NCBI GenBank assembly: GCA_004555175.1
Contig: SFJE01000003.1
Span: forward strand, 1,914 to 65,913
Direction of reading: 5' to 3'
From: Lentisphaeraceae bacterium
GTDB lineage: Bacteria; Verrucomicrobiota; Kiritimatiellia; RFP12; DVOR01
DNA: 64,000 bases
The position numbers and the translations under genes were made by a program. Positions within the stretch are counted from its first letter, which is position 1. Every line of letters starts with the position of its first letter. Positions 9,195-63,405 of this stretch are shown one piece after another. The notes beneath the pieces are model-generated. The model saw only the letters and a program-made list of their open reading frames with translations. It had not been told where the DNA came from and searched no databases.

Positions 9195-12100
9195 CTTGGC
9201 CTCGATGAGGAGGCGGAGTTCGTGGCCGTTGAGGTCGATGGGGTCGGTTGTGAGTTCGCCGGGGAGGAGGGCGTCGCCTTGGACTTCCTCAAGGATGGTG
9301 TCTTGCCAGGCATCGAGGGCGGCGGCGACTTCGTCGTCGGCTTGGAAGGTGACTTCGATGCGCTGGGTGACTTCGAGGTCGGCTTCCTTGCGCAGGGCTT
9401 GGACGCGGGAGACGAACTCGCGCATCAGGCCTTCGGCGAGGAGGGCGGCGGTGAGGGCGGTTTCGAGGGCGACGACGATGTTGCCTTCGGCGGCGACGAC
9501 GAGGCCTTCGCGCGGTTCGCGGCGGATGACGACTTCGTCGGGGGCGAGGGTGGTTTCGGTGCCCTGGATGGTGAGGGGGACGGTTTCGCCGCGGGCAAGG
9601 GCGGCGGCGAGGGGGGCCGGGAGGGCGGCGATGGCGGCGGCGGCGGCCTTCATTTGGGCGCCGAAGCGGGGGCCAAGGCGCTTGAAGTCGGCCTTGAGGG
9701 AGAGGTTGGCGAGGGCGGTTTCGTCGTCGCCGAAGGAGATGTCCTTGACGTTGAGTTCTTCGCGGATGATGTCGGTGTAGGCGGCGAGGGCGGCGCGGGC
9801 AGCGGCATCGGCGGAGACGACGTGGAGGCGGGCGAGGGGCTGGCGGACCTTGAGGTCCTTATCGGTGCGCAGCTGGCGGCCGAGGCGGACAACGCGCTGG
9901 ACGAGCTCCATATCGGCTTCGAGGCGGAGGTCACGGGCGGCAGCATCGGCGGTGGGGAAGGCGCAGAGGTGAACGCTTTCGGGGTCGTTCGGGCCGCGGA
10001 GGTTGCGGTAGATTTGCTCGCTGACGAAGGGGCAGAAGGGGGCGGCAACCTTTGAGAGTTGGACGAGGACGTAGCGGAGGGTGCGGTAGGCGTGGCGCTT
10101 GTCGGCATCGTCTTCGCTCTTCCAGAAGCGGCGGCGGGAGCGGCGGATGTACCAGTTGGTGAGCGCGTCGATGAAGTCGACGAAGGGGCGGACGGCCTTC
10201 TGGAGGTCGTAGGCGTCCATAGCGGTGGAGACATCGGCGATGAGGGTTTCCATCGAGGAGACGATCCAGCGGTCGAGGACGTGGGGGGAGGTGGGGCGGG
10301 CGACATCGGGCTCGTCGAAGCCGTCGGCATTGGCGTAGGTGACGAAGAAGCTGTAGGCGTTCCACCAGGGGATGAGGAGGTCGCGCAAGAGTTGTTTGAC
10401 GCCGGCTTCGGAGAAGCGGAGGTTTTCGGCGCGGACAACGGGAGAGTTGATGAGGTAGAGGCGAAGGGCGTCGGCGCCGTAGGTGTCGATGACGTGCTTG
10501 GGGTCGGGGTAGTTTTTGAGGCGCTTGGACATCTTCTTGCCATCTTCGGCGAGGACGAGGCCGTTGACGACCACGTTCTTGTAGGGGGCCTTACCGAAGA
10601 GGAGGGTGCCGAGGACGAGGAGCGTGTAGAACCAGCCGCGGGTCTGGTCGAGGCCTTCGGCGATGAAGTCGGCGGGGAAGAAGGTGTCGAGCTCTTTGCC
10701 GGAGAAGGGGAAGTGTTGCTGGGCGTAGGGCATGGAGCCAGATTCGAACCAGCAGTCGAGGACCTCGGGGGTGCGGTGATAGGTGTGGCCGTCCTTACGG
10801 ATGACGACCTTGTCGATGATGTGCTTGTGGAGGTCGGTAATCTTCTGCCCGCTGAGGGCTTCGAGCTCGGCGACGGAGCCGACGCAGATGCGGTCTTCGG
10901 GATCGTCGTCGTTGATCCAGATGGGCAGGCACGAGCCCCAGAAGCGGTTGCGGGAGATGTTCCAGTCCTTCGCGTCGCGCAGCCAGTTGCCGAAGCGGTT
11001 GGCGCCGACGGCTTCGGGCTGCCAGTGGACGGTGGCGTTGTTGGCGGTGAGGCGCTCGTGGAGGTCTTCAACGCGGACGTACCAGGCGTCGATGGCGCGG
11101 TAGATGAGGGGCGTGTCGGTGCGGTCGCAGAAGGGATAGGCGTGGACGATGGTGCCTTGGTGGACGAGCTTGCCGTTTTGCTTGAGCTCGCGAATGATGT
11201 CCTTGTCGCAATCCTTGCAGAAGCGGCCGCGCCAGGCTTCGGGGGCGGGGGCGGTGAAGGCGCAGCCTTCGTCCATCGGGTCTTCGAGGGTGATGCCGGC
11301 GGCCGAGCAGACGCGGAAGTCGTCTTCACCGTAGGCCGGGGCATTGTGGACCAGGCCGGTGCCGTCGGTGGTGGTGACGTAGCTATCGGTGAGGACGACG
11401 AAGGCGTTGGGCTTGTCCTTGTAGTAGGGGAAGATGGGCTCGTAGTGGAGGCCCTTGAGCTCGGTGCCCTTGAGCTTTTCGAGGATCTCGACCTTGGGGT
11501 TCTTGCCGAAGACGGCGGTCAGGCGGCTCTCGGCGAGGATGTAGACGGCCCCATCGGCGTCCTTGACGGCGAGGTAGTCAATCTCCGGGCCGGCGCAGAT
11601 GGCGAAGTTGGTGAGCAGCGTCCAGGGGGTGGTGGTCCAAACGAGGAGGTAGGCCTCTTCGCCCCAAACGGGATGGGCGCCCTGGGTGATGCGGCAGCGG
11701 ACGGTGACGGCGGGGTCCTGCACGTCCTTGTAGTTGCTGCCGGCCTCGAAGTTGGAGAGGGGCGTGGAGAGCTTCCACGAATAGGGCATAATGCGGTGGC
11801 TCTTATAGATGCGCCCCTGGTCCCACAGCTGCTTGAAGACCCACCAGACCGACTCCATAAAGCTCGGCTGCATGGTCTTGTAGTCATTATCAAAGTCTAC
11901 CCAGCGGCCCATACGGGTGACCGTCTCGCGCCACTGCGAGACGTAGCGCAGCACCATTGCGCGGCACTGCTCGTTGAAGGCCTCCACCCCGTGCTGGCGG
12001 ATCTCGTAGGCGCCATTGACGCCCAGCGCTTCCTGCGCCAGGGCCTCGATGGGCAGCCCGTGGCAGTCCCACCCAAAGCGCCGCTCCACGTAGTGCCCGC

Positions 12101-12325: not shown

Positions 12326-12386
12326 GTGGATTAGCTGTTAGCGGTTAGCGGCTAGCTGTTAGCGCGCGTTCCGCGACGGATGGGGT
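12326..12386. repeat. Repeat arm: heptamer array TTAGCTGTTAGCGGTTAGCGGCTAGCTGTTAGCG plus reverse core CGCGTTCCGCGACGG (12365-12379)
   Basis: It is the inverted partner of 12797-12860 across the four-helix-bundle gene. Confidence 0.75.
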
Positions 12387-12752: not shown

Positions 12753-12796
12753 CGTTGCTTGGGCTCGCCGTTGCACGCGCTCCACGTGCTCGATCG

Positions 12797-12860
12797 AAAG
12801 CTTCTCCGTCGCGGAACGCGTGCTAATGGCTAACAGCTAACCGCTAACTGCTGTCGCAAC
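12797..12860. repeat. Repeat arm: core CCGTCGCGGAACGCG (12806-12820) plus heptamer array GCTAATGGCTAACAGCTAACCGCTAACTGCTGTCGC
   Basis: Direct reading. Confidence 0.75.
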
Positions 12861-12865
12861 GCGGC

Positions 12866-13321
12866 TCAGCCGCGGAGGGCGGCAAGGACGCCATCGCGGT
12901 CGGGGGCGGAGATGATGGCTTCGCGGGTGGTCGGATCCATCAGCTTGCGGCTGATGCTACCGAGGAAGACCATATAGCCTGAGCCGGCGGAGGGCGGAAC
13001 GAGCATCAAGATAACGACCTTGGTCGGCTCGCCATCGGGGGCATCGGCCGCGAAGCCATCCTTGTGCACGCCGATGGCGCAGACGAGCTCCTCGACCACA
13101 TCGGTGCGGCCGTGGGGGAGGGCGATTTCGTCGGTCATCACGGTTGAGGCGGACATCTCGCGGCGGACGATGGCCTGCTTGGCTTCGTCCTTCTTGGCCT
13201 CGGGGAGGGCACCGCTAGCGACGAGCGCGTCCATCAGCTCGGCGATGACGCCAAAGATGTCTTCGCTACGCAGCGAGGTGACGACCACGGCCTTTTCCAA
13301 CATCGTGTCATAGGTGTTCAT
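12866..13321 (-). CDS. ptsN: PTS EIIA(Ntr)-like nitrogen regulatory protein (PTS_EIIA_2 domain)
   Basis: 151 aa. The EIIA fructose/mannitol-type fold signature includes an active-site His context (IALPHGR). Confidence 0.7.
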   Translation of the reverse strand: MNTYDTMLEKAVVVTSLRSEDIFGVIAELMDALVASGALPEAKKDEAKQAIVRREMSASTVMTDEIALPHGRTDVVEELVCAIGVHKDGFAADAPDGEPTKVVILMLVPPSAGSGYMVFLGSISRKLMDPTTREAIISAPDRDGVLAALRG

Positions 13322-21524: not shown

Positions 21525-21639
21525 GCATGCTCCTTCTGCTTACGTCATATAGTGTAGCACACCCACGCCCAAAAGCAAACGCCTTTGACAATTCTAGGGT
21601 TTGCAATTTCAATCGCACCACGATGGCATTGCCTCTCGC

Positions 21640-21800
21640 CCGGCCGTAAACTAATAAGACCCCGTCTTATTGGCAACAAGACCCCGTCTTATTGGCAACA
21701 AGACGGGGCCTTAATAATTCCCGCCGCCCCGGGGGGAAGTTTTCGCCCGGCGTGCGGGAAGTTACGCCAGCCCGAGGCACAGTTTTCCGGCGGGAGCGGT
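21640..21800. repeat. Partial copy of the promoter-proximal element with 22-mer hairpin units (AATAAGACCCCGTCTTATTGGCAAC x2 inverted, x1 direct) and a GAGCGGTTAGT module, upstream of tolB
   Basis: Shares the unit sequence with 42509-42606 and 59523-59619. TTTGCTACAAT sits at 21905. Confidence 0.6.
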
Positions 21801-37332: not shown

Positions 37333-38454
37333 CTATGCGTCTAGTTCTGCGCGCCAAGCTTCGGTGCCGCAGAGTTTGGTCATCCACTCGGGGCGGGCTT
37401 GGGGATGGGCGAAGAGGCGCTCGGGACCGTAGCGGCGGTGGAGGGTGCGCAGGAGGGCGCAAGTGACGGCCCAGGGGCGGAAGGTGCGCGCGTTGGTGAC
37501 GTGCAGGCGGATGGCACCTTGGTCGGGGGCTTGGGTGAAGTCGTGGAAGGTGATGCCGGGGAGGGCGAGGGCGTTGAGTTCGGCGGCGAGGCGCTCGCCC
37601 TCGAACCAGGGGGCGGAGAGGACGCGGAAGGCGTAGGCGGTGGCGCGGGCGATGTCGAGCTGCGGGAGGGCCTCGGCGAAGACGGTGGCCGGGTAGATGC
37701 GCGCAGTCTCCCAGGAACGGATGGCGGGAGAGGGGGGGATGAACTCGGGCACGGGCGGCCGCTCAAAGGGCGGACAAGGGGCGGTCATTGGCGCGGCCAG
37801 GTGAGGGAGACCGGAGAAGGCGGCGATTTCGGTGGGGAGGCGGCCGTGGACAAGGGGCAAGGCGCAGGGGGCCACGAAGGAGAAGTGCTCCGGCTCGGCC
37901 ACGGGGCCGTCTTCGATGGTGTGCCAGGGGATGGGGCGGTCGCAGACCAGGCAGGGGAGCTTGGCTTCGGCGCAGGCTTCGAGGGTGAGGAGCAGGGTGG
38001 CGAGGTAGGTGTAGCAACGCACGCCGAGGTCTTGGAGGTCGACGATGAGCAGGTCGAGCCCCGCGAGCATCTCGGGGGTGGGCTTGCGGTGCTGGCCGTA
38101 GAGGGAGTGGACGGGGATGCCCCAGAGCGGATGGGTGGCCGAGGCAGTGCGCTCGCCGGCGGCCGCCACGCCGAAGTAGCCGTGCTCGGGGCCAAAGAGG
38201 GCGCGCAAGTTCGCCCCAAAGACTCGCCGGCAGGCCTGCGCGGCGGTTTCGCCCGTGCTCAGGAGCGCAGCCTGGTGGGAGAGCAACCCCACGCGTAGCC
38301 TTCGATCGGCCGTGGCGAGCCAGGCCTCGATGCCGGCGTAGTTGGCTACGCCGGCATCAGCGGACAGCGGACAGCCGTTAGCTGCTAGCACGCGTGCCGC
38401 GACGGGCCGGCTAGCGGCAGAAACATCAAGGGGAGCACTCTCGACCATAGGCAT
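37333..38454 (-). CDS. DUF1343 family protein (NamZ-like exo-acetylmuramidase family)
   Basis: Motif LLSHQAAL...ALFGPEHGYFG typical of DUF1343. The N-terminal ~35 codons of the ORF are translated from the repeat element at 38345-38405, so the real start is probably internal. Confidence 0.65.
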   Translation of the reverse strand: MPMVESAPLDVSAASRPVAARVLAANGCPLSADAGVANYAGIEAWLATADRRLRVGLLSHQAALLSTGETAAQACRRVFGANLRALFGPEHGYFGVAAAGERTASATHPLWGIPVHSLYGQHRKPTPEMLAGLDLLIVDLQDLGVRCYTYLATLLLTLEACAEAKLPCLVCDRPIPWHTIEDGPVAEPEHFSFVAPCALPLVHGRLPTEIAAFSGLPHLAAPMTAPCPPFERPPVPEFIPPSPAIRSWETARIYPATVFAEALPQLDIARATAYAFRVLSAPWFEGERLAAELNALALPGITFHDFTQAPDQGAIRLHVTNARTFRPWAVTCALLRTLHRRYGPERLFAHPQARPEWMTKLCGTEAWRAELDA

Positions 38455-38507
38455 CTCCGTCGCGGAACGCGCGCTAACCGCTAGCAGCTAACCGCTATTT
38501 TTGCGGC
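38345..38507. repeat. Complete empty composite element: heptamers CAGCGGACAGCGGACAGCC+GTTAGCTGCTAGC, reverse core variant ACGCGTGCCGCGACGG, ~70-bp spacer, core CCGTCGCGGAACGCG (38467-38481), heptamers GCTAACCGCTAGCAGCTAACCGCTA
   Basis: Direct reading. Confidence 0.7.
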
Positions 38508-42359: not shown

Positions 42360-42410
42360 AACAAGCCCATTATAGCACACCCACCCTGCACTATGCTATA
42401 TCGTGCGCAT

Positions 42411-42660
42411 GGTGCTCATTGTCATACTCCTTTCACATTAGACAGTTTCAACCGTTCAAGCACCGCCATCATATCCCACTTCCGCGCTGGGTTAACTCGC
42501 TTCCCGAGCGACTTGAATGAATAAGGCCCCGTCTTGTTGCAAATAAGACGGGGCCTTGTTGCGAATAAGACGGGGCCTTATTACCAATAAGACGGGGCCT
42601 TATTAGTTGCGCTCCGCCGAGCGGTTAGTTCTCTCCGCGCCGCGTGATAATCCGCGCCGC
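42411..42660. repeat. ~250-bp promoter-proximal element, copy 1 (about 90% identical to 59417-59670) with a 22-mer array at 42509-42606 (one inverted plus three direct AATAAGACGGGGCCTTRTTRNN units)
   Basis: Direct alignment of the two loci. TTTGCTACAAT at ~42706 sits upstream of aroK/B. Confidence 0.75.
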
Positions 42661-42742
42661 CGAGGCACTCTAAGCACGGTCAGCGCACAGGGTACGCGGG
42701 GGTTTGCTACAATTTGGGCGAAGAAGGAGCTTGAAAGACGGT

Positions 42743-50200: not shown

Positions 50201-50212
50201 TGCTCGCCCAAT
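50171..50212 (+). terminator. Perfect 19-bp inverted repeat hairpin (ATTGGGCGAGCATTACTCGC/GCGAGTAATGCTCGCCCAAT) containing the methyltransferase stop codon
   Basis: Direct reading. No obvious U-run follows, so it may act as a structure rather than a classical terminator. Confidence 0.5.
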
Positions 50213-50340
50213 AGCTGTTAGCTGTTAGCGGCTAGCTGTTAGCGCGCGTTCCGCGACGGATAGGCTGGAGGCGGCCCCTCACACGCCCCTTACCCGAGTT
50301 TGCCCGTCGCGGAACGCGGCTGTCCGCTGTCGGCTTGAAG
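50205..50340. repeat. Complete empty composite element: heptamers AGCTGTTAGCTGTTAGCGGCTAGCTGTTAGCG, reverse core (50245-50259), 44-bp spacer, core (50304-50318), heptamers GCTGTCCGCTGTCGGCT
   Basis: Direct reading. Confidence 0.75.
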
Positions 50341-51929: not shown

Positions 51930-52112
51930 GCGTTATAGCCGACAGCGGACAGCCGACAGCGGACAAGTCCGTAGCGTTAGCGAAGGAGCTATGCCATCGA
52001 GCTGGCGCTCGATGTGGAAGGCCCGTCTGAGCCGTGAAGGGCACTCTTGCCAAGCCAACAGCCCCTCCGTCGCGGAACGCGGCTGTCCGCTGTCCGCTGT
52101 CGGCTGTCCGCT
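51930..52112. repeat. Composite repeat: heptamers GCCGACAGCGGACAGCCGACAGCGGACAAG, module GTAGCGTTAGCGAAGGAGCTATGCCATCG, spacer, core (52067-52081), heptamers GCTGTCCGCTGTCCGCTGTCGGCTGTCCGC
   Basis: Direct reading. It lies immediately upstream (5') of the NERD-helicase gene. Confidence 0.75.
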
Positions 52113-52166
52113 TGCCAGGTTATCGCACCTCATCTGCCATCGCTCCTCGGGGCTTTCGCCGGCGAA

Positions 52167-55375: not shown

Positions 55376-55500
55376 CCTTTCGCACTTCCATCCGGACTTC
55401 ACCGTCGGCCGCGGACTTCCACCGCGTCAAGCGCACCACCCGGCGCGCGTCGTGGGCTATACCACCGGTAGGGCCAAGGCCCTCCCTGCACGAAAGCGCG
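55376..55500 (-). ncRNA. FMN riboswitch (RFN element) leader of ribBA-ribH-nusB
   Basis: The minus-strand sequence matches RFN conserved blocks: AGGGCCTTGGCCCTACCGGTGGTATAGCCCACGA...GGTGGAAGTCCGCGGCCGACGGTGAAGTCCGGATGGAAG. It ends ~30 nt before the ribBA SD. Confidence 0.75.
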
Positions 55501-55540: not shown

Positions 55541-55769
55541 GAGACACCCTTATCCCGGATTTCCTCAGGGATCGAAGGATGAGGGGGTTAGGCCTTCGAT
55601 TTAGAAGGAGAAGTTGGGAATAGATGACGCCCAGTGCTCACCGTCGTGCACATAAGGGCCGCCGTAGCGTACCGAAATGGCCGCGTCTGGTTGCCGAAAA
55701 CATCATCCTGCAAGGGCTTAACCGTGCAAAGCATGATTGCCATATTCGTGCCCATAGGGAGCTCCTTTC

Positions 55770-55912
55770 GTTTGGTGTCAACCGCTATTGTAGAGGAAAG
55801 TGAAAAGTCTCCCTATTTTTCCCCTTCCCGAGATTTATTTTTCCCTACTGCTCATTGGCCTCGTTCACTATTGGGGATAATTTATCCCAGAAATTTCCGG
55901 GATAAGGTGCCG
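55770..55912. repeat. Left terminal inverted repeat of the McrBC cassette. Its inner end carries a 24-bp palindrome TTATCCCAGAAATTTCCGGGATAA (55882-55905)
   Basis: Direct reading. Confidence 0.7.
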
Positions 55913-55945
55913 CGTTACTTACCTAATTGTTCTATGCTATAATTC
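55910..55945 (+). promoter_or_regulatory. mcrB promoter (-10 TATAAT at 55937-55942) with SD AGGAGG 8 nt before the ATG
   Basis: AT-rich canonical signals that contrast with the host regions. Confidence 0.5.
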
Positions 55946-56051
55946 GTCCATCAAGCAGAAAGTACTTGTCAGCACTGTTCCAACTGCACTTGTTGCACTG
56001 GAAATTGGCTAGCGGGGCCGAAAAGAAGACCGCAAGAGGAGGCATCTAATT

Positions 56052-57761
56052 ATGAACGCATACGTAGTAGCTCCGAGCTGTGATGCGGCAGGAACGCAGG
56101 ATGACTGGCTCCCGAAAATCGAAAAATTTCAGATTGCAATCAACGGGTATTCAGCAGACGAAGAAGATGGGAAGAAGCAGATTGGCCATCGTTTTGCAGC
56201 AATAAAAGATGGTGATCTCGTTATCATTGCCAACGGGAAGAATTCTTCTAAGGCGTGTTACTTTGCTGGTTTTGCTGAGCCCAAGGGTGATGCGGCCCTT
56301 GCTAAGCAGATTGGAGCTACTCAGGTTAGACGATTGCGTTCGTTCACGTCATTGAAGGGTGAGAAAATCCCGTTCTCTCTGGAGTGTAAACATGGTAACA
56401 CCCCCGGCCCGTGGATAGATGCATGTTACATGTTGGACGATAAGAAGCCGGCGGATAGGAACGTTATTGATACGGTGCTTTCGATTATTGCAAAATCCCA
56501 AGGAGGTCGTATGATCGATGAAATGATTAAGCTGCTGGAGAAGGCAAAGCAGGTAGTATTTACTGGTGCGCCTGGAACTGGCAAGACTTATCTTGCACGA
56601 CAGATTGCCCAGAAGATGATCTTAGGGAAGATAGTCGATGACGAGAGTAAATTGACTCTGGAAGAAAAGACGATGCTTGAGGAGCAGATGGGCTTTGTAC
56701 AGTTTCATCCGTCTTACGACTATACCGATTTCGTCGAGGGGTTACGGCCAAACAAATCGCCTAACGGCGATACGCTTGGTTTTGAACGGCGAGATGGTGC
56801 GTTTAAGAAATTCTGTAGCCGTGCAGCACAGAAGGCCGACAGTAATTTTGATAGGGTTTACGAACGGTTCATTTCTGATATTGATGAGCAGTACAGCGAG
56901 GACAACCCGCTGGAACTTAAAACGGACGGTCACAACGTTTCATTTTACGTATACCCTAACTCCAATGAAAGTTTAAATCTTCTAACCGGACCGAGCAAGA
57001 AGAAGCAGGGAAGTCTAACGCCGGACAAGATCAAGACCTTCTTGACAGATACGCCCTATAAGTGGTGGTCAGGTTATTATCGCGGCGTGTTAAATTATCT
57101 CAAGCGTAAATATGGTTTGTCGTCTAGCGCGCGGAAGACTGAGAAGCCGTATGTATTCATAATTGACGAAATCAACCGGGGTGATATTTCCAAGATATTC
57201 GGAGAGCTGTTCTTCGCGATGGATAAAGGCTACCGTGGCAAGGAAGCTTCGCGAGTGAAGACGCAATACGACAACCTGATCGAGAAGGGCGATGTTTTCT
57301 ATGGAGGGTTCTACGTGCCAGATAACGTGTACATCATCGGCACGATGAATGATATCGACCGCAATGTCGAATCGATGGACTTCGCGATTCGCCGTCGTTT
57401 TACCTGGAAGGAGATTGAGCCCTCGGCTCGTTTTGATGCCATGTGGTCTGACCTAGACGAAATTGCCGGAACAGTCAAAGAAGAGGCACGGCGACGGATG
57501 AACACCATGAATACAGTTATTGCGGAGACGAAAAACGGGCTGGGGCCTGCTTATCAGATTGGACCGTCGTATTTCCGAGAGTTGGCGACTTATCATGATG
57601 ACTCCGATGGAGGCTTTGCATCTTTGTGGGAGAATCACCTCAAACCGCTGATCAAGGAGTACCTGCGCGGATTTCCGAATGCCGACGGTATCATCGACAA
57701 GATTCACGGGGCATATAAAAATCCGCTGCAGGCGGAAGGAGATGCCAAAGAGGCGGAATGA
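56052..57761 (+). CDS. mcrB: McrB-like GTP-specific AAA+ restriction subunit with an uncharacterised ~170-aa N-terminal (putative modified-DNA-reading) domain
   Basis: Walker A GAPGTGKTY, motifs FHPSYDYTDFVEG, IIDEINRGDISKIFGELF and IIGTMNDIDR..DFAIRRRF. A ~150-aa insertion lies between the McrB signature and Walker B. Confidence 0.85.
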   Translation: MNAYVVAPSCDAAGTQDDWLPKIEKFQIAINGYSADEEDGKKQIGHRFAAIKDGDLVIIANGKNSSKACYFAGFAEPKGDAALAKQIGATQVRRLRSFTSLKGEKIPFSLECKHGNTPGPWIDACYMLDDKKPADRNVIDTVLSIIAKSQGGRMIDEMIKLLEKAKQVVFTGAPGTGKTYLARQIAQKMILGKIVDDESKLTLEEKTMLEEQMGFVQFHPSYDYTDFVEGLRPNKSPNGDTLGFERRDGAFKKFCSRAAQKADSNFDRVYERFISDIDEQYSEDNPLELKTDGHNVSFYVYPNSNESLNLLTGPSKKKQGSLTPDKIKTFLTDTPYKWWSGYYRGVLNYLKRKYGLSSSARKTEKPYVFIIDEINRGDISKIFGELFFAMDKGYRGKEASRVKTQYDNLIEKGDVFYGGFYVPDNVYIIGTMNDIDRNVESMDFAIRRRFTWKEIEPSARFDAMWSDLDEIAGTVKEEARRRMNTMNTVIAETKNGLGPAYQIGPSYFRELATYHDDSDGGFASLWENHLKPLIKEYLRGFPNADGIIDKIHGAYKNPLQAEGDAKEAE

Positions 57762-59083
57762 AATCGTCGCTGATAAAGCTCAAGGATAACGGAGACGTGA
57801 AAATCTCCGATGACGTCGCGATGAAATTGCGTCGTTATGCTGGGCTTCGTCTTGACGTATTGTGTGGCGAGAATCCTTCGTTGTTGATTTTCCCTAATTG
57901 CCTTGGGGATAATGGAGATAGGATCAATGAAGGACGGTTGTTCTCTTTGAATGGCGACTGTCTGTCGGTTGGCAACATCGTAGGGTTCTGGGGTGTTGAT
58001 GACGTGAATGTTCGCGTCCATTCCCGTTTCGACATGGATGATCGCCAGTATTTCTTCCACTACATGCTTCAGCGCATCTGCAAGGTGAATGTCATCGATA
58101 TGCAGACGCTGCCGGATGAAGAGGATTTGTGGGACTTCCTTATCTATTTGTTCCCGATGGCGCTTAAGGGCGCGATGCGTCAGGGCATCTTCCGGGCTTA
58201 TCGAGTGTTTAGATACGATGATGATCAGGTGAGGGGGGCGATTGACGTTGCCCGGTACATTCGGCATGATATTCCCTTTTCAGGACGTGTTTCGTATTCA
58301 ACGCGTGAGCATACTGCAGACAATCATGTGATTCAGCTTGTTCGTCATGCGGTAGAATTTATCCGTCGCCGCGCACCGGGTATTCTGTCTGTTGACGGAG
58401 AAATGCGTCAGGCTGTGGACACCATTGTGCAGCTGACGCCAGATTATTCGGAAAAGTCGCGGCAAAGGATTATGGCGGCGAATTTGCGGCCTGTGCGCCA
58501 TCCATATTACTCAGCCTATACAGGACTGCAGCGCATTTGCCTTCAGATACTTCGCCATGAAAAGATTGCGTTTGGGGAGAACGACGGACGCATTTGCGGC
58601 ATAGTGTTTGACGCCGCTTGGCTTTGGGAGGAATACCTGAATTCATTATTTGAGGGCGACAAGGGCTTTACTGGTGTGGTGCACCCGATGAATAAGACCT
58701 GCCAGAATCCGGTCTACTTCTTTGAGCCGAAAAGGGGGCCACATTATCCTGATTTCTATGATGAGAAGCGCCGCGTGGTTATGGATGCCAAGTATAAGAG
58801 TCTTGACAACGGCATTCCTCGTGAGGATTTATTTCAGTTGATTTCCTATATTCATGTAATGGCATACCGATCAGGCGTGTTATTATATCCGTCGCACGCT
58901 ACAGGATTTCATGATGAGGGGCGGCTGAAAGGATTAGGAGGTCGCATTGGCTGGGCTTCGCTCATGGTGCCAAAGGCGGCGGATTGCGTGGAGTTCAGGA
59001 ATTTCGAGGCTGCCATCCGCAATAATGAGGGGGAATTTTTAAGATTGCTAGGGGAGCATGATTACGATGACAACCATTCTTGA
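57758..59083 (+). CDS. mcrC: McrC-like PD-(D/E)xK nuclease subunit
   Basis: Overlaps the mcrB stop by 4 nt. C-terminal PD-(D/E)xK core (..D...VMDAKYK). 441 aa. Confidence 0.8.
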   Translation: MKSSLIKLKDNGDVKISDDVAMKLRRYAGLRLDVLCGENPSLLIFPNCLGDNGDRINEGRLFSLNGDCLSVGNIVGFWGVDDVNVRVHSRFDMDDRQYFFHYMLQRICKVNVIDMQTLPDEEDLWDFLIYLFPMALKGAMRQGIFRAYRVFRYDDDQVRGAIDVARYIRHDIPFSGRVSYSTREHTADNHVIQLVRHAVEFIRRRAPGILSVDGEMRQAVDTIVQLTPDYSEKSRQRIMAANLRPVRHPYYSAYTGLQRICLQILRHEKIAFGENDGRICGIVFDAAWLWEEYLNSLFEGDKGFTGVVHPMNKTCQNPVYFFEPKRGPHYPDFYDEKRRVVMDAKYKSLDNGIPREDLFQLISYIHVMAYRSGVLLYPSHATGFHDEGRLKGLGGRIGWASLMVPKAADCVEFRNFEAAIRNNEGEFLRLLGEHDYDDNHS

Positions 59084-59285
59084 GAGACTTATTGCAGCGA
59101 TCCGCAAGGCGGCGGGATACAATTCCGCAGTCGAAGTTGCGCCGTCCTGCATTCTCTGAACAGACAAGGAGAAGCAGTTCGAGGGCGCGGTCTCGGCACT
59201 GCAGAAGAACATGCCGGAACTGCTCGTGTGGGGCAAGTACGACGCCGCACGTCGGCGCGGTCCGACTGTCAAGCCCCCGGCTTAA

Positions 59286-59430
59286 GGCACCCTTATCTCG
59301 GAAATTTCTGGGATAAATTATTCCCGATAGTGAACGAGGCCAATGAGCAGTAGGGGAAAATAAATCTCGGGAAGTGAAAAAAGAATAGGGAGACTTTTCA
59401 GTTTCCGCTACAATAGCGGTTGACCACATA
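59286..59430. repeat. Right terminal inverted repeat of the McrBC cassette, with a palindrome TTATCTCGGAAATTTCTGGGATAA at its inner end
   Basis: Direct reading. Confidence 0.7.
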
Positions 59431-59670
59431 CTCCTTTCACGTTAGACAGTTTCAACCGCTCAAGCGCTGCCATTGTATCACACCTCCGCGCTGGGTTAAC
59501 TCGCTTCCCGGGCGACTTGAATGAATAAGGCCCCGTCTTGTTGCCAATAAGACGGGGTCTTGTTGCGAATAAGACGGGGTCTTGTTGCCAATAAGACGGG
59601 GTCTTATTAGTTGCGCTCCGCCGAGCGGTTAGTTCTCTCCGCGGGGCGTGATAATCCGCGCCGCCCTTTC
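59417..59670. repeat. ~250-bp promoter-proximal element, copy 2, with a 22-mer array at 59523-59619 (AATAAGACGGGGTCTTGTTGCC units)
   Basis: Aligns with 42411-42660. The McrBC cassette abuts its 5' end. Confidence 0.75.
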
Positions 59671-59785: not shown

Positions 59786-60586
59786 ATGCAGAAAGGACAA
59801 GCCGTGAGTACAGTAATGGAAGAGACGATTTCCAGCGCGATTGTGCGCTCGTTTTTCAAGAAGTTTGAGAGTCACCTGGCCGTGGATGTGGGCATCGTGG
59901 GGGCGGGTCCCTCGGGGTTGGTGGCGGCGAAGTATCTGGCGGATATGGGGCTGAAGGTGGCGATGTTCGAGAGCAAGCTTGCGCCCGGCGGCGGCACCTG
60001 GGGCGGCGGCATGCTCTTTAATGAGGTGGTGGTGCAGGATGATGCCGCGCCGATCCTCCACGACTTCAATATTACAACCGTGAACCTGGGCAACGGCTAT
60101 CACACCCTCGACTCGGTGGAGATGGCCTCGGGCCTCATCTTCGGCGCGCGCAAGGCCGGCGCCACCATCTTCAACACCATGTGCGTGGAGGACATCTGCG
60201 TGCGCGAAGGGAAGGTCTGCGGCCTGGTGGTGAATTGGAACCCGGTCCGCCGGCTGGAGATGCACGTCGACCCGGTGGTCGTGACGGCGCGCGCGGTGCT
60301 CGATGGCACCGGCCACCCCTCGGAGATTGTCCACAAGGCGGTCGACAAGGCCGGCATCAAGGTCGATTCGCCCACCGGTGGAATTATGGGCGAGAAGCCG
60401 ATGTGGATGGAAGATGGCGAGCGCACCACCGTCATCAACACCAAGCGCCTCTATCCCGGGCTCTACGCCTCGGGCATGGCCGCGAACAATGTCCAGGGCG
60501 GCTTCCGGATGGGGCCCATCTTCGGCGGCATGCTCAAGTCCGGCAAGAAGGTGGCCGAGCTCATCGCTGCCGACCTGCGGGCGTAA
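59786..60586 (+). CDS. thi4: Thiazole synthase Thi4 family (thiamine thiazole synthase / ribose-1,5-bisphosphate isomerase-like)
   Basis: FAD-binding motif [11 protein letters not shown] and the Thi4 family sequence. 266 aa. Confidence 0.85.
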
Positions 60587-62962: not shown

Positions 62963-63039
62963 CGGAGCGTAGCGCAGCCTGGTAGCGCGTTTGGTTCGGG
63001 ACCAAAAGGTCGTGGGTTCAAATCCCACCGCTCCGACCA
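62963..63039 (+). tRNA. tRNA-Pro (anticodon CGG)
   Basis: Manual cloverleaf: acceptor CGGAGCG/CGCTCCG, anticodon loop TTCGGGA, T-loop TTCAAAT, encoded CCA. Confidence 0.9.
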
Positions 63040-63053
63040 TCTAAAGCCCAATG

Positions 63054-63137
63054 CACCCGTGGTGGAATTGGCAGACACGTAAGATTCAGGTTCTTATGCT
63101 GCGAGGCGTGTGGGTTCGAGTCCCACCGGGTGCACCA
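63054..63137 (+). tRNA. tRNA-Leu (anticodon CAG), long variable arm
   Basis: Manual cloverleaf: acceptor GCACCCG/CGGGTGC, anticodon stem TAAGA/TCTTA with loop TTCAGGT, T-loop TTCGAGT, CCA. Confidence 0.9.
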
Positions 63138-63147
63138 TACTTCCTAG

Positions 63148-63222
63148 GCCCCCATCGTCTATCGGCTAGGACACAAGGTTCTCATCCTTGGAAGAGCGGT
63201 CCGACTCCGCTTGGGGGTGCCA
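63148..63222 (+). tRNA. tRNA-Glu (anticodon CTC), copy 1
   Basis: Acceptor GCCCCCA/TGGGGGT, anticodon loop TTCTCAT, encoded CCA. Confidence 0.85.
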
Positions 63223-63238
63223 ACTGGGGAGGTCCTAC

Positions 63239-63313
63239 GCCCCCATCGTCTATCGGCTAGGACACAAGGTTCTCATCCTTGGAAGAGCGGTCCGACTCCG
63301 CTTGGGGGTGCCA
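63239..63313 (+). tRNA. tRNA-Glu (anticodon CTC), copy 2
   Basis: Identical 75-nt sequence to copy 1, after a 16-nt spacer. Confidence 0.85.
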
Positions 63314-63315
63314 TC

Positions 63316-63405
63316 GGAGAGGTGGCAGAGCCTGGTTGAATGCACATGACTCGAAATCATGCGTGCCGCAAGGTACCGGGGGTTCGAATCCCTCCCTCTC
63401 CGCCA
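63316..63405 (+). tRNA. tRNA-Ser (anticodon CGA), long variable arm
   Basis: Acceptor GGAGAGG/CCTCTCC, anticodon stem CATGA/TCATG with loop CTCGAAA, T-loop TTCGAAT, CCA. Confidence 0.85.

Follow-up and report, generated by a model that had tools for sequence, protein, structure and literature searches.

We report that a defence-gene cassette lying between ribBA and thi4 in a 64,000-nucleotide stretch of contig SFJE01000003.1 from a Lentisphaeraceae bacterium (hereafter the window, meaning the whole stretch) is very probably a degenerate, transposase-less composite transposon with defence cargo, residing in a gut genome of 'Candidatus Spyradenecus' (Lentisphaerota). Two decayed copies of a non-autonomous insertion sequence (IS), arms A and B, surround the genes of an McrBC type IV restriction system; arm A bears both of the IS terminal inverted repeats (TIRs) and arm B the inner one. 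The same arms-plus-cargo unit was found in unrelated genomic contexts, namely in the window and in a contig denoted L032. The first-pass annotation of this region, made from the sequence alone, had described a mobile defence cassette in the form of a miniature inverted-repeat transposable element (MITE) with an 8-bp target-site duplication (TSD). We retain the idea of a repeat-bounded, transposase-less and horizontally acquired cassette with a second context, but not the MITE with its 8-bp TSD.

The arms and the 770-bp element

Arm A (55545-55909, minus strand) represents ~365 bp left by deletion from a ~770-bp, non-autonomous IS of the IS4/IS701-like type. It starts with the outer TIR CACCCTTATCCCGGATTTCC at 55545 and closes with the inner TIR GAAATTTCCGGGATAAGGTG ending at 55909, and its reverse complement matches the 770-bp copies of contigs L036 and L032 over element positions 1-250 and 695-770. 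Arm B (59288 to approximately 59426, plus strand) was delimited by a multiple alignment of all copies as a second, inverted and truncated copy of this IS. It corresponds to element positions 1 to ~143 only, beginning with the inner TIR CACCCTTATCTCGG at 59288, diverging from the other copies after GCGGTTGAC and lacking the outer ~625 bp together with the outer TIR. The IS termini are thus short TIRs of 15-20 bp, CACCCTTATCCCGG.../...CCGGGATAAGGGTG, found at 55545, 55909 and 59288. A match at 55542-55575, which looked like a third partial inverted repeat and was marginal when taken alone (score 38 vs. 22±4 for shuffles), is accounted for by arm A's outer TIR.

Complete copies of the 770-bp type with both TIRs were found at L032:13014-13779, L036:249-1018 and L036:3417-4185, with a mutual identity of 94-96%. 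The first of them, the right arm of the L032 cassette, is a discrete 766-bp unit that starts with CACCCTTATCCCGGAAATTTC and ends with GACAAAATCCGGGATAAGGGTG; the two copies in L036 measure 770 and 769 bp. Comparison with these copies allowed us to reinterpret the inverted repeat of ~140 bp and ~90% identity noticed at first. The repeat itself was borne out, as the reverse complement of 59286-59424 agrees with 55777-55911 at 127 of 139 positions (91%) with two small indels, and weaker similarity reaches on to 55770 and 59431. These two points, proposed as the element termini (GTTTGGTGTCAACC and GGTTGACCACATA), are not termini at all: the homology in L032, L033 and L036 continues 100-600 bp past them, and the inverted arms of L032, ~220 bp long (9651-9868 vs. 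13014-13230), pass through both the supposed termini and the octamer beside them. The repeat appears to end at 55770 and 59431 because arm B is cut off after ~140 bp. As read from the alignments, the ~140-bp "TIR" is the portion of the IS still common to both arms, and what had been regarded as its inner ends are the true ends of the IS.

Sequence comparison likewise shows that the 770-bp unit derives from a ~1.5-kb DDE insertion sequence by internal deletion and is non-autonomous. It holds the start of an open reading frame (ORF), MGTNIANAIILRTIKPLLDDVF..., preceded by GAAAGGAG, and, read in a different frame, the C-terminal part of a transposase (…YNRWQIE/DVLFQDIKG…) that matches the IS4 model NF033591 (E 3.7e-8), IS701 models (2e-5) and, weakly, PF01609 (0.007); these matches fall under the whole-protein cut-offs, as expected of a fragment. 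A profile search of 1.84 billion representatives revealed transposase relatives of 416-438 aa, whose residues 1-22 and ~274-390 align to both remnants at 42-50% identity. The best families of these full-length relatives are IS4 and IS701, at no more than 64 bits vs. curated cut-offs of 152. The 770-bp copies retain approximately transposase residues 1-28 and 270-420, the DDE core being absent.

No functional transposase is present in either arm, only remnants. The absence of an intact transposase noted in the first pass was thus confirmed, with the correction that arm A carries a remnant ORF of 55 aa (55755->55588, minus strand; 55588-55755), recognized from the ORF list and its translation. 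It comprises the first ~20 transposase codons followed by an out-of-frame remainder, and its N-terminus aligns to residues 1-22 of two of the full-length relatives, P0171 and P0180.

Decayed members of the arm IS family are scattered widely over pig-gut metagenomes. Further remnants adjoin an apparent rRNA operon at L038:1335-5381, and in protein P0165 a remnant is fused in frame to a fragment of an RHS/YD-repeat protein. An exact search with the 21-mer core of the inverted repeat, CTGCTCATTGGCCTCGTTCAC, gave one match each in the GTDB genome representatives and the JGI metagenomes and none in IMG/VR. The two matches were dismissed as chance, since both lie inside genes of RRM-type RNA-binding proteins and do not extend. 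Patterns containing the TIRs had no match in IMG/VR, and the 770-bp element had none among PLSDB plasmids and INPHARED phages.

The McrBC cargo and its other contexts

The DNA enclosed by the arms is, to judge from its sequence, a slice of a BREX (bacteriophage exclusion) operon. The block 56016-59266 corresponds, at 95.9% identity, to an uninterrupted 3,251-bp stretch of the type-1 BREX operons in contigs L028, L029 and L030, which were found via McrB homologues at a threshold of at least 90% identity. On the plus strand it comprises the last 36 bp of the BREX methyltransferase gene pglX (56016-56051, including the Shine-Dalgarno (SD) sequence for mcrB), mcrB (56052-57761), mcrC (57758-59083) and the first 200 bp of pglZ (59067-59266). 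In the three contigs (e.g., L028:1303-17421) the gene order is brxC, a DUF4062/HATPase_c_4 gene, pglX, mcrB, mcrC, pglZ and brxL, and the full type-1 set (brxA/B/C, pglX, pglZ, brxL) is there; the window has only the 36 bp of pglX and the 200 bp of pglZ, so that it holds no BREX system. L028-L030 can therefore be regarded, on these sequence grounds, as the donor-type architecture of the window cargo. What had been listed as a GC-rich gene remnant turned out, when translated beside the PglZ of L028, to be a pglZ 5′ stump of 66 codons, in which the tryptophan codon 31 (W31) is changed from TGG to TGA (59157-59159).

Both mcrB (569 aa) and mcrC (441 aa) are intact, with mcrC overlapping the mcrB stop by 4 bp. 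McrB matches AAA_5 (E 1.7e-13) and, in two stretches, the E. coli McrB structure PDB 6hz4 (E 1.8e-36), and bears a Walker A motif GAPGTGKT, a Walker B motif FIIDEINRG and the motif MNDIDR. McrC matches PF10117 (E 4e-46 over 309 residues) and contains a motif of the PD-(D/E)xK type, YPDF...MDAKYK. Judging by this sequence evidence, the cargo is apparently an intact McrBC type IV restriction system, which should cut modified incoming DNA. PADLOC offered no fitting model for McrC and only weak REase_II matches for McrB. The dN/dS ratios of the two genes vs. their relatives, 0.24-0.74, are compatible with function without being decisive. The N-terminal domain and the insertion in the GTPase domain of McrB pointed out earlier both exist, though the former may not deserve the term "uncharacterised": residues ~1-130 form a predicted EVE/YTH-like reader domain, closest in fold to EVE/UPF0310 and the VcaM4I reader domain, and would thus belong to a known class of modified-base readers. 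The insertion, ~100 aa long (residues ~262-360) and located before Walker B as compared with E. coli McrB, is common to the subfamily.

Arm A is separated from the BREX slice by a spacer of ~105 bp (55910-56015, plus strand), where an extended -10 promoter-like site, TGCTATAAT, can be read at 55935-55943. Its TATAAT box occupies 55938-55943 with TGC just before it; the -35 is poor, and a consensus promoter scan did not list the site. Both the TATAAT box and the AGGAGG SD named in the first pass are present, and the TGCTATAAT site next to the inner end of arm A probably drives the transcription of mcrBC. The L032-type copies carry this spacer too, differing only by an 11-bp indel.

The McrBC genes flanked by these arms occur also in L031, L032, L033, L034 and L035, at 96.7-97.9% identity. 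In L032, a 37-kb contig of 51.5% GC, a tyrosine integrase and a type I restriction-modification (RM) system lie beside the cassette, in contrast to the ribBA-thi4 surroundings in a Lentisphaerota genome of 66% GC. The window-type and L032-type cassettes have a common left junction and different right ones: in L032 the IS end abuts mcrC at codon ~436, and in the window and L035 it follows the pglZ stump. Such differences between the right junctions of L032 and the window are a pattern typical of IS-adjacent deletion.

A second kind of cargo was found in L036 (ENA ERZ940726, pig gut), where two direct 770-bp copies bracket the genes for AbiLi and AbiLii (L036:249-4185; PADLOC E 2.2e-60 and 4.4e-7, respectively). 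The outer ends of this composite are flanked by the 7-bp direct repeat TACCTCG, as expected for composite transposition, and the empty site predicted for it reads GTCCGTTTTACCTCGTAGGCGGCGG. Its neighbours (DUF3799, DUF669, AAA_25) have a phage- or plasmid-like look.

The insertion site and competing explanations

To place the cassette in its host locus, related contigs from other samples were retrieved by an exact-protein look-up of RibBA, which falls in a 90%-identity protein cluster with proteins of metagenome-assembled genomes named 'Candidatus Spyradenecus sp.' (Lentisphaerota). The window itself also belongs to a 159-kb metagenomic contig, k141_160762 of ENA ERZ27309572. The flanks were confirmed to be ordinary: on the left, ribBA on the minus strand with its FMN riboswitch (55376-55497, minus strand; Rfam RF00050, 79 bits), a host flank present in all strains, and on the right thi4 on the plus strand (59786-60586; PF01946, E 4.5e-68). 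Five contigs with an identical RibBA (L019, L014, L015, L018 and L021) lack the insert, ~55544 being joined to ~59483; in L019 ribBA and thi4 are directly adjacent. The homology of these empty sites ends at ~55544-55547 on the left and restarts at 59483 on the right, with ~30 bp of hairpin sequence, GCGGGGGGCACCCGAACATCGAGCACCCCCCGC, in between. The strain-specific DNA is therefore 55545-59482, ~3.9 kb, and not the 3.66-kb element 55770-59430, which it exceeds by 225 bp on the left and 52 bp on the right. Its GC content of 0.49 vs. 0.65-0.66 in the host agrees with the lower value ascribed to the interior before. At the left junction (GCCGAGACACCCTTATCC) host sequence ending in ...GCCGAGA is followed by the outer TIR CACCCTTATCCCGG of arm A, exactly at the empty-site breakpoint. 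Had a composite transposed here and duplicated the 7 bp GCCGAGA, the intact right junction would be predicted to read GGATAAGGGTGGCCGAGAGACGCGG.

The right junction is of another kind. Arm B, ending in ...GCGGTTGAC, is followed by CA and then by a host-repeat block, CATACTCCTTTCAC..., which matches its paralogue at 42423 over CATACTCCTTTC. This block opens copy 2 of a host repeat (59427-59665, plus strand; 239 bp), 93% identical to copy 1 at 42423-42661, so that the placement of a promoter-proximal repeat copy at the right edge was correct. The first 56 bp of copy 2 (59427-59482, including the octamer CTCCTTTC) are missing from the empty-site strains. As for copy 1, in 42409-42437 on the minus strand GAAAGGAG-T-ATG starts an ORF of merely nine codons, MTMSTMRTI*, ahead of the TATAAT promoter that serves a cation-diffusion-facilitator-like gene; it could encode a leader peptide or be left over from a gene start. 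The equivalent SD-ATG in copy 2 reads into arm B.

These junctions bear directly on the model of the first-pass annotation, in which a 3.66-kb MITE-like element with ~140-bp TIRs at 55770 and 59431 inserted into CTCCTTTC of host repeat copy 2 and duplicated this octamer, the uninterrupted target reading ...CCCATAGGGAGCTCCTTTCACGTTAGACAG... / ...GGGAGCTCCTTTCACGTTAG.... The model had real attractions: the identical octamer stands directly at both ends of the alignable repeat (55762-55769 and 59431-59438), the outermost 14 nt match at 11 positions, and joining the flanks would put GAAAGGAG six nucleotides upstream of a minus-strand ATG. Still, besides the homology of the copies that runs on past both supposed ends, the left octamer and 222 bp leftward of it belong to the IS, recurring in L020, L032, L033 and L036 and, inverted, in the L032 right arm. 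This octamer is the reverse complement of GAAAGGAG, the SD of the remnant ORF 55755->55588; the motif is conserved inside the IS in all five copies covering the position, and in arms oriented like arm B (the L032 right arm) it reads GAAAGGAG and not CTCCTTTC. The right octamer falls within the host-repeat block, whose match to copy 1 exceeds the prediction of the duplication model by four bases, and the left flank (55548-55761) is not significantly similar to what precedes copy 1 (score 19, reached by 114 of 1000 shuffles). The empty sites, moreover, lack 55545-55769 and 59431-59482 as well. A strain without the insert had been expected to carry a single octamer within GGGAGCTCCTTTCACGTTAGACAG; such strains were found, and CTCCTTTC is absent from the junction in all five. 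The octamer, a complement of an SD sequence, is sevenfold over-represented, occurring 7 times in the window vs. ~1 expected.

Since the left octamer lies within the IS and the right one in the host repeat, the octamers are not a target-site duplication; they are two unrelated SD complements beside an arbitrary end of an alignment. The annotation had named, as grounds for giving up its model, an 8-mer belonging to a longer host repeat on both sides. The right octamer does so and the left one belongs to an IS arm, which agrees with the spirit of that statement rather than its letter. Altogether, the model is contradicted by the data and scarcely credible.

Somewhat less improbable is that the island reached the locus through homologous recombination, either between strains at a hotspot of variability in the ribBA-thi4 interval or via the host intergenic repeat, with the IS arms as passengers from an earlier history elsewhere. 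The ribBA-thi4 interval is indeed a variable or rearranged locus in the species, because in two contigs with an identical RibBA (L013:409-2982 and L016:384-2957) a gene for an 857-aa protein with no Pfam match stands beside ribBA in place of thi4, and a thi4 contig (L008:1-148) has yet another sequence upstream of GGGTTAACTCGC; the right junction, in addition, lies inside a repeat with a paralogue 17 kb off. We nevertheless consider this route improbable. Recombination does not predict the left junction, where the exact outer TIR of arm A meets host sequence otherwise collinear with the empty sites, as in a transposition product, and the 49% GC insert was not seen in any other sampled strain. 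As IS copies often accumulate around defence genes, one could also imagine that McrBC was resident in the lineage and that two IS copies inserted independently on either side of it. The GC content of the cargo (0.49 vs. 0.65 in the host), the pglX and pglZ fragments of a BREX operon that is not at the locus, the absence of the whole unit from the empty-site strains and the presence of the arms-plus-cargo unit elsewhere make this the least credible of the explanations.

Several observations weigh against the composite transposon itself. No TSD can be demonstrated for the window composite, the outer end of arm B being missing, and for transposition at the ribBA-thi4 locus only the exact TIR/host junction on the left can be adduced. 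The 7-bp duplication is known from a single locus, L036, and could also result if an IS-cargo circle recombined homologously into an IS copy already in place. Nor does the scheme account for the 56 bp at 59427-59482, paralogous to 42423-42478 and yet missing from the empty sites, for the ~105-bp spacer or for the 21-bp junction 59267-59287. Finally, the check for a cognate transposase advised in the first pass did not bring one to light: a word-index search of 5.8 billion proteins gave no intact close homologue, only fragments of up to 146 aa. As the nearest full-length relatives reach only 42-47% identity, the source of a transposase acting in trans is hypothetical.

Taken together, the data favour a composite transposon with the following history. 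In a donor, two copies of an IS4/IS701-like IS would have come to lie on either side of a type-1 BREX segment, made up of mcrB and mcrC with 36 bp from the end of pglX and 200 bp from the start of pglZ, and the IS-bracketed segment would then have moved as a unit. The IS copies presumably decayed, and the family may circulate mainly as the ~770-bp derivative, which has kept its TIRs and lost the DDE catalytic core, such that its movement would need a transposase supplied in trans. Arm A would have undergone a further internal deletion with both ends kept and its outer end joined exactly to the host breakpoint. In arm B a later deletion or recombination may have removed everything past the first ~140 bp and fused the arm to the host intergenic repeat. 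By now the cassette has probably become fixed and immobile.

Several other features of the window were recorded. An inverted repeat pair at 45985-46094/51935-52044 (110 nt, 91%, 5.8 kb apart) encloses genes for a decarboxylase, a methyltransferase and a NERD/UvrD helicase; it was rejected as a similar cassette, as its interior has host GC content and its genes are conserved in all related strains, and it represents an intergenic host repeat. Tandem 22-bp units, AATAAGACGGGGYCTTGTTGC, each being half of a strong hairpin, lie between genes at 21631-21741, 42520-42608 and 59524-59612 and look like a genome-specific family of terminator-like repeats. Another, abundant intergenic family (1463-1532, 12332-12384, 12789-12852, 38358-38497, 50212-50329 and 52044-52113) has a core CCGTCGCGGAACGCG with flanking runs of 6-7-nt units (TAGCGG/TAGCTG or CTGTCC/CTGTCA) and is REP-like, occurring in both orientations. 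Five tRNA genes are clustered at 62963-63402, among them tandem copies (63142-63222 and 63233-63313) that are 99% identical.

Relation to known systems and implications

The anatomy described here resembles that of the composite transposons Tn5, Tn10 and Tn9, where likewise two IS copies surround passenger genes; the copies are inverted in the window and direct in L036. Each copy is bounded by short IS TIRs, the unit recurs across contexts, and in L036 a 7-bp direct repeat is present. In contrast to Tn5, Tn10 and Tn9, the arms are internal-deletion derivatives devoid of transposase, the cargo serves phage defence and not antibiotic resistance, and in the window arm B has no outer end, so that the unit has lost its competence as a transposon.

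Cargo flanked by MITEs or non-autonomous IS elements is known from integron mobilisation units, from MITE-flanked class 1 integrons in Acinetobacter and from TIME-COMP elements. They, too, consist of transposase-less IS derivatives with intact TIRs around a functional cassette, presumably mobilised in trans. MITE-flanked cargo is the subject of the MITEAba12 paper (PMC6382973). Here the arms are IS4/IS701-like, ~770 bp long or shorter decay products, McrBC or AbiL serves as cargo, uncultured gut Lentisphaerota and other bacteria act as hosts, and mobilisation is presumed.

The restriction system itself shares with E. coli McrBC the AAA+ GTPase with Walker A, Walker B and MNxxDR motifs, the PF10117 McrC with a PD-(D/E)xK motif and the overlapping two-gene operon. 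In having a predicted PUA-like modified-base reader at the N-terminus of McrB, it would be akin to Thermococcus gammatolerans McrB with its YTH-like N-terminus. It differs from E. coli McrB in that its N-terminal domain is nearer to EVE/UPF0310 and VcaM4I than to the DUF3578 type, and in the ~100-aa insertion before Walker B. Nesting of type IV restriction in a BREX locus has been described for BrxU in pEFER (PMC8565348), and auxiliary nucleases embedded in BREX loci have been surveyed (PMC12839542). The operons of L028-L030 follow this pattern in nesting mcrBC between pglX and pglZ of a type-1 BREX operon; there the nested module is McrBC and not GmrSD/BrxU, and the window keeps only the module with BREX stumps.

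Our analysis removes a tempting wrong claim, as the locus does not harbour a new element with long TIRs and an 8-bp footprint, and it illustrates that truncated IS copies together with a common SD motif can mimic the signature of long TIRs and a TSD. It also provides a sequence-level record of a BREX-nested type IV module that appears to have been cut out by flanking IS insertions, with the pglX and pglZ stumps still attached, and to have gone on to spread, now standing alone, to a distant Lentisphaerota host of high GC content. AbiL is a further defence system bracketed by this non-autonomous IS derivative, with a probable target duplication at its flanks. To our knowledge, composites of transposase-less IS derivatives, well known for resistance genes, have been little described for phage defence, so that the case is a modest but useful data point on the movement of defence genes.

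A bolder and rather unlikely interpretation is that the ~770-bp derivative is an active, trans-mobilised arm that repeatedly captures anti-phage modules and shuttles them between distant gut bacteria; the captures seen so far are two, McrBC out of a BREX operon and AbiL. If this were true, it would mean a defence-specialised family of MITE-type composite transposons and would show a nested auxiliary module leaving its BREX operon to become a free-standing mobile system.

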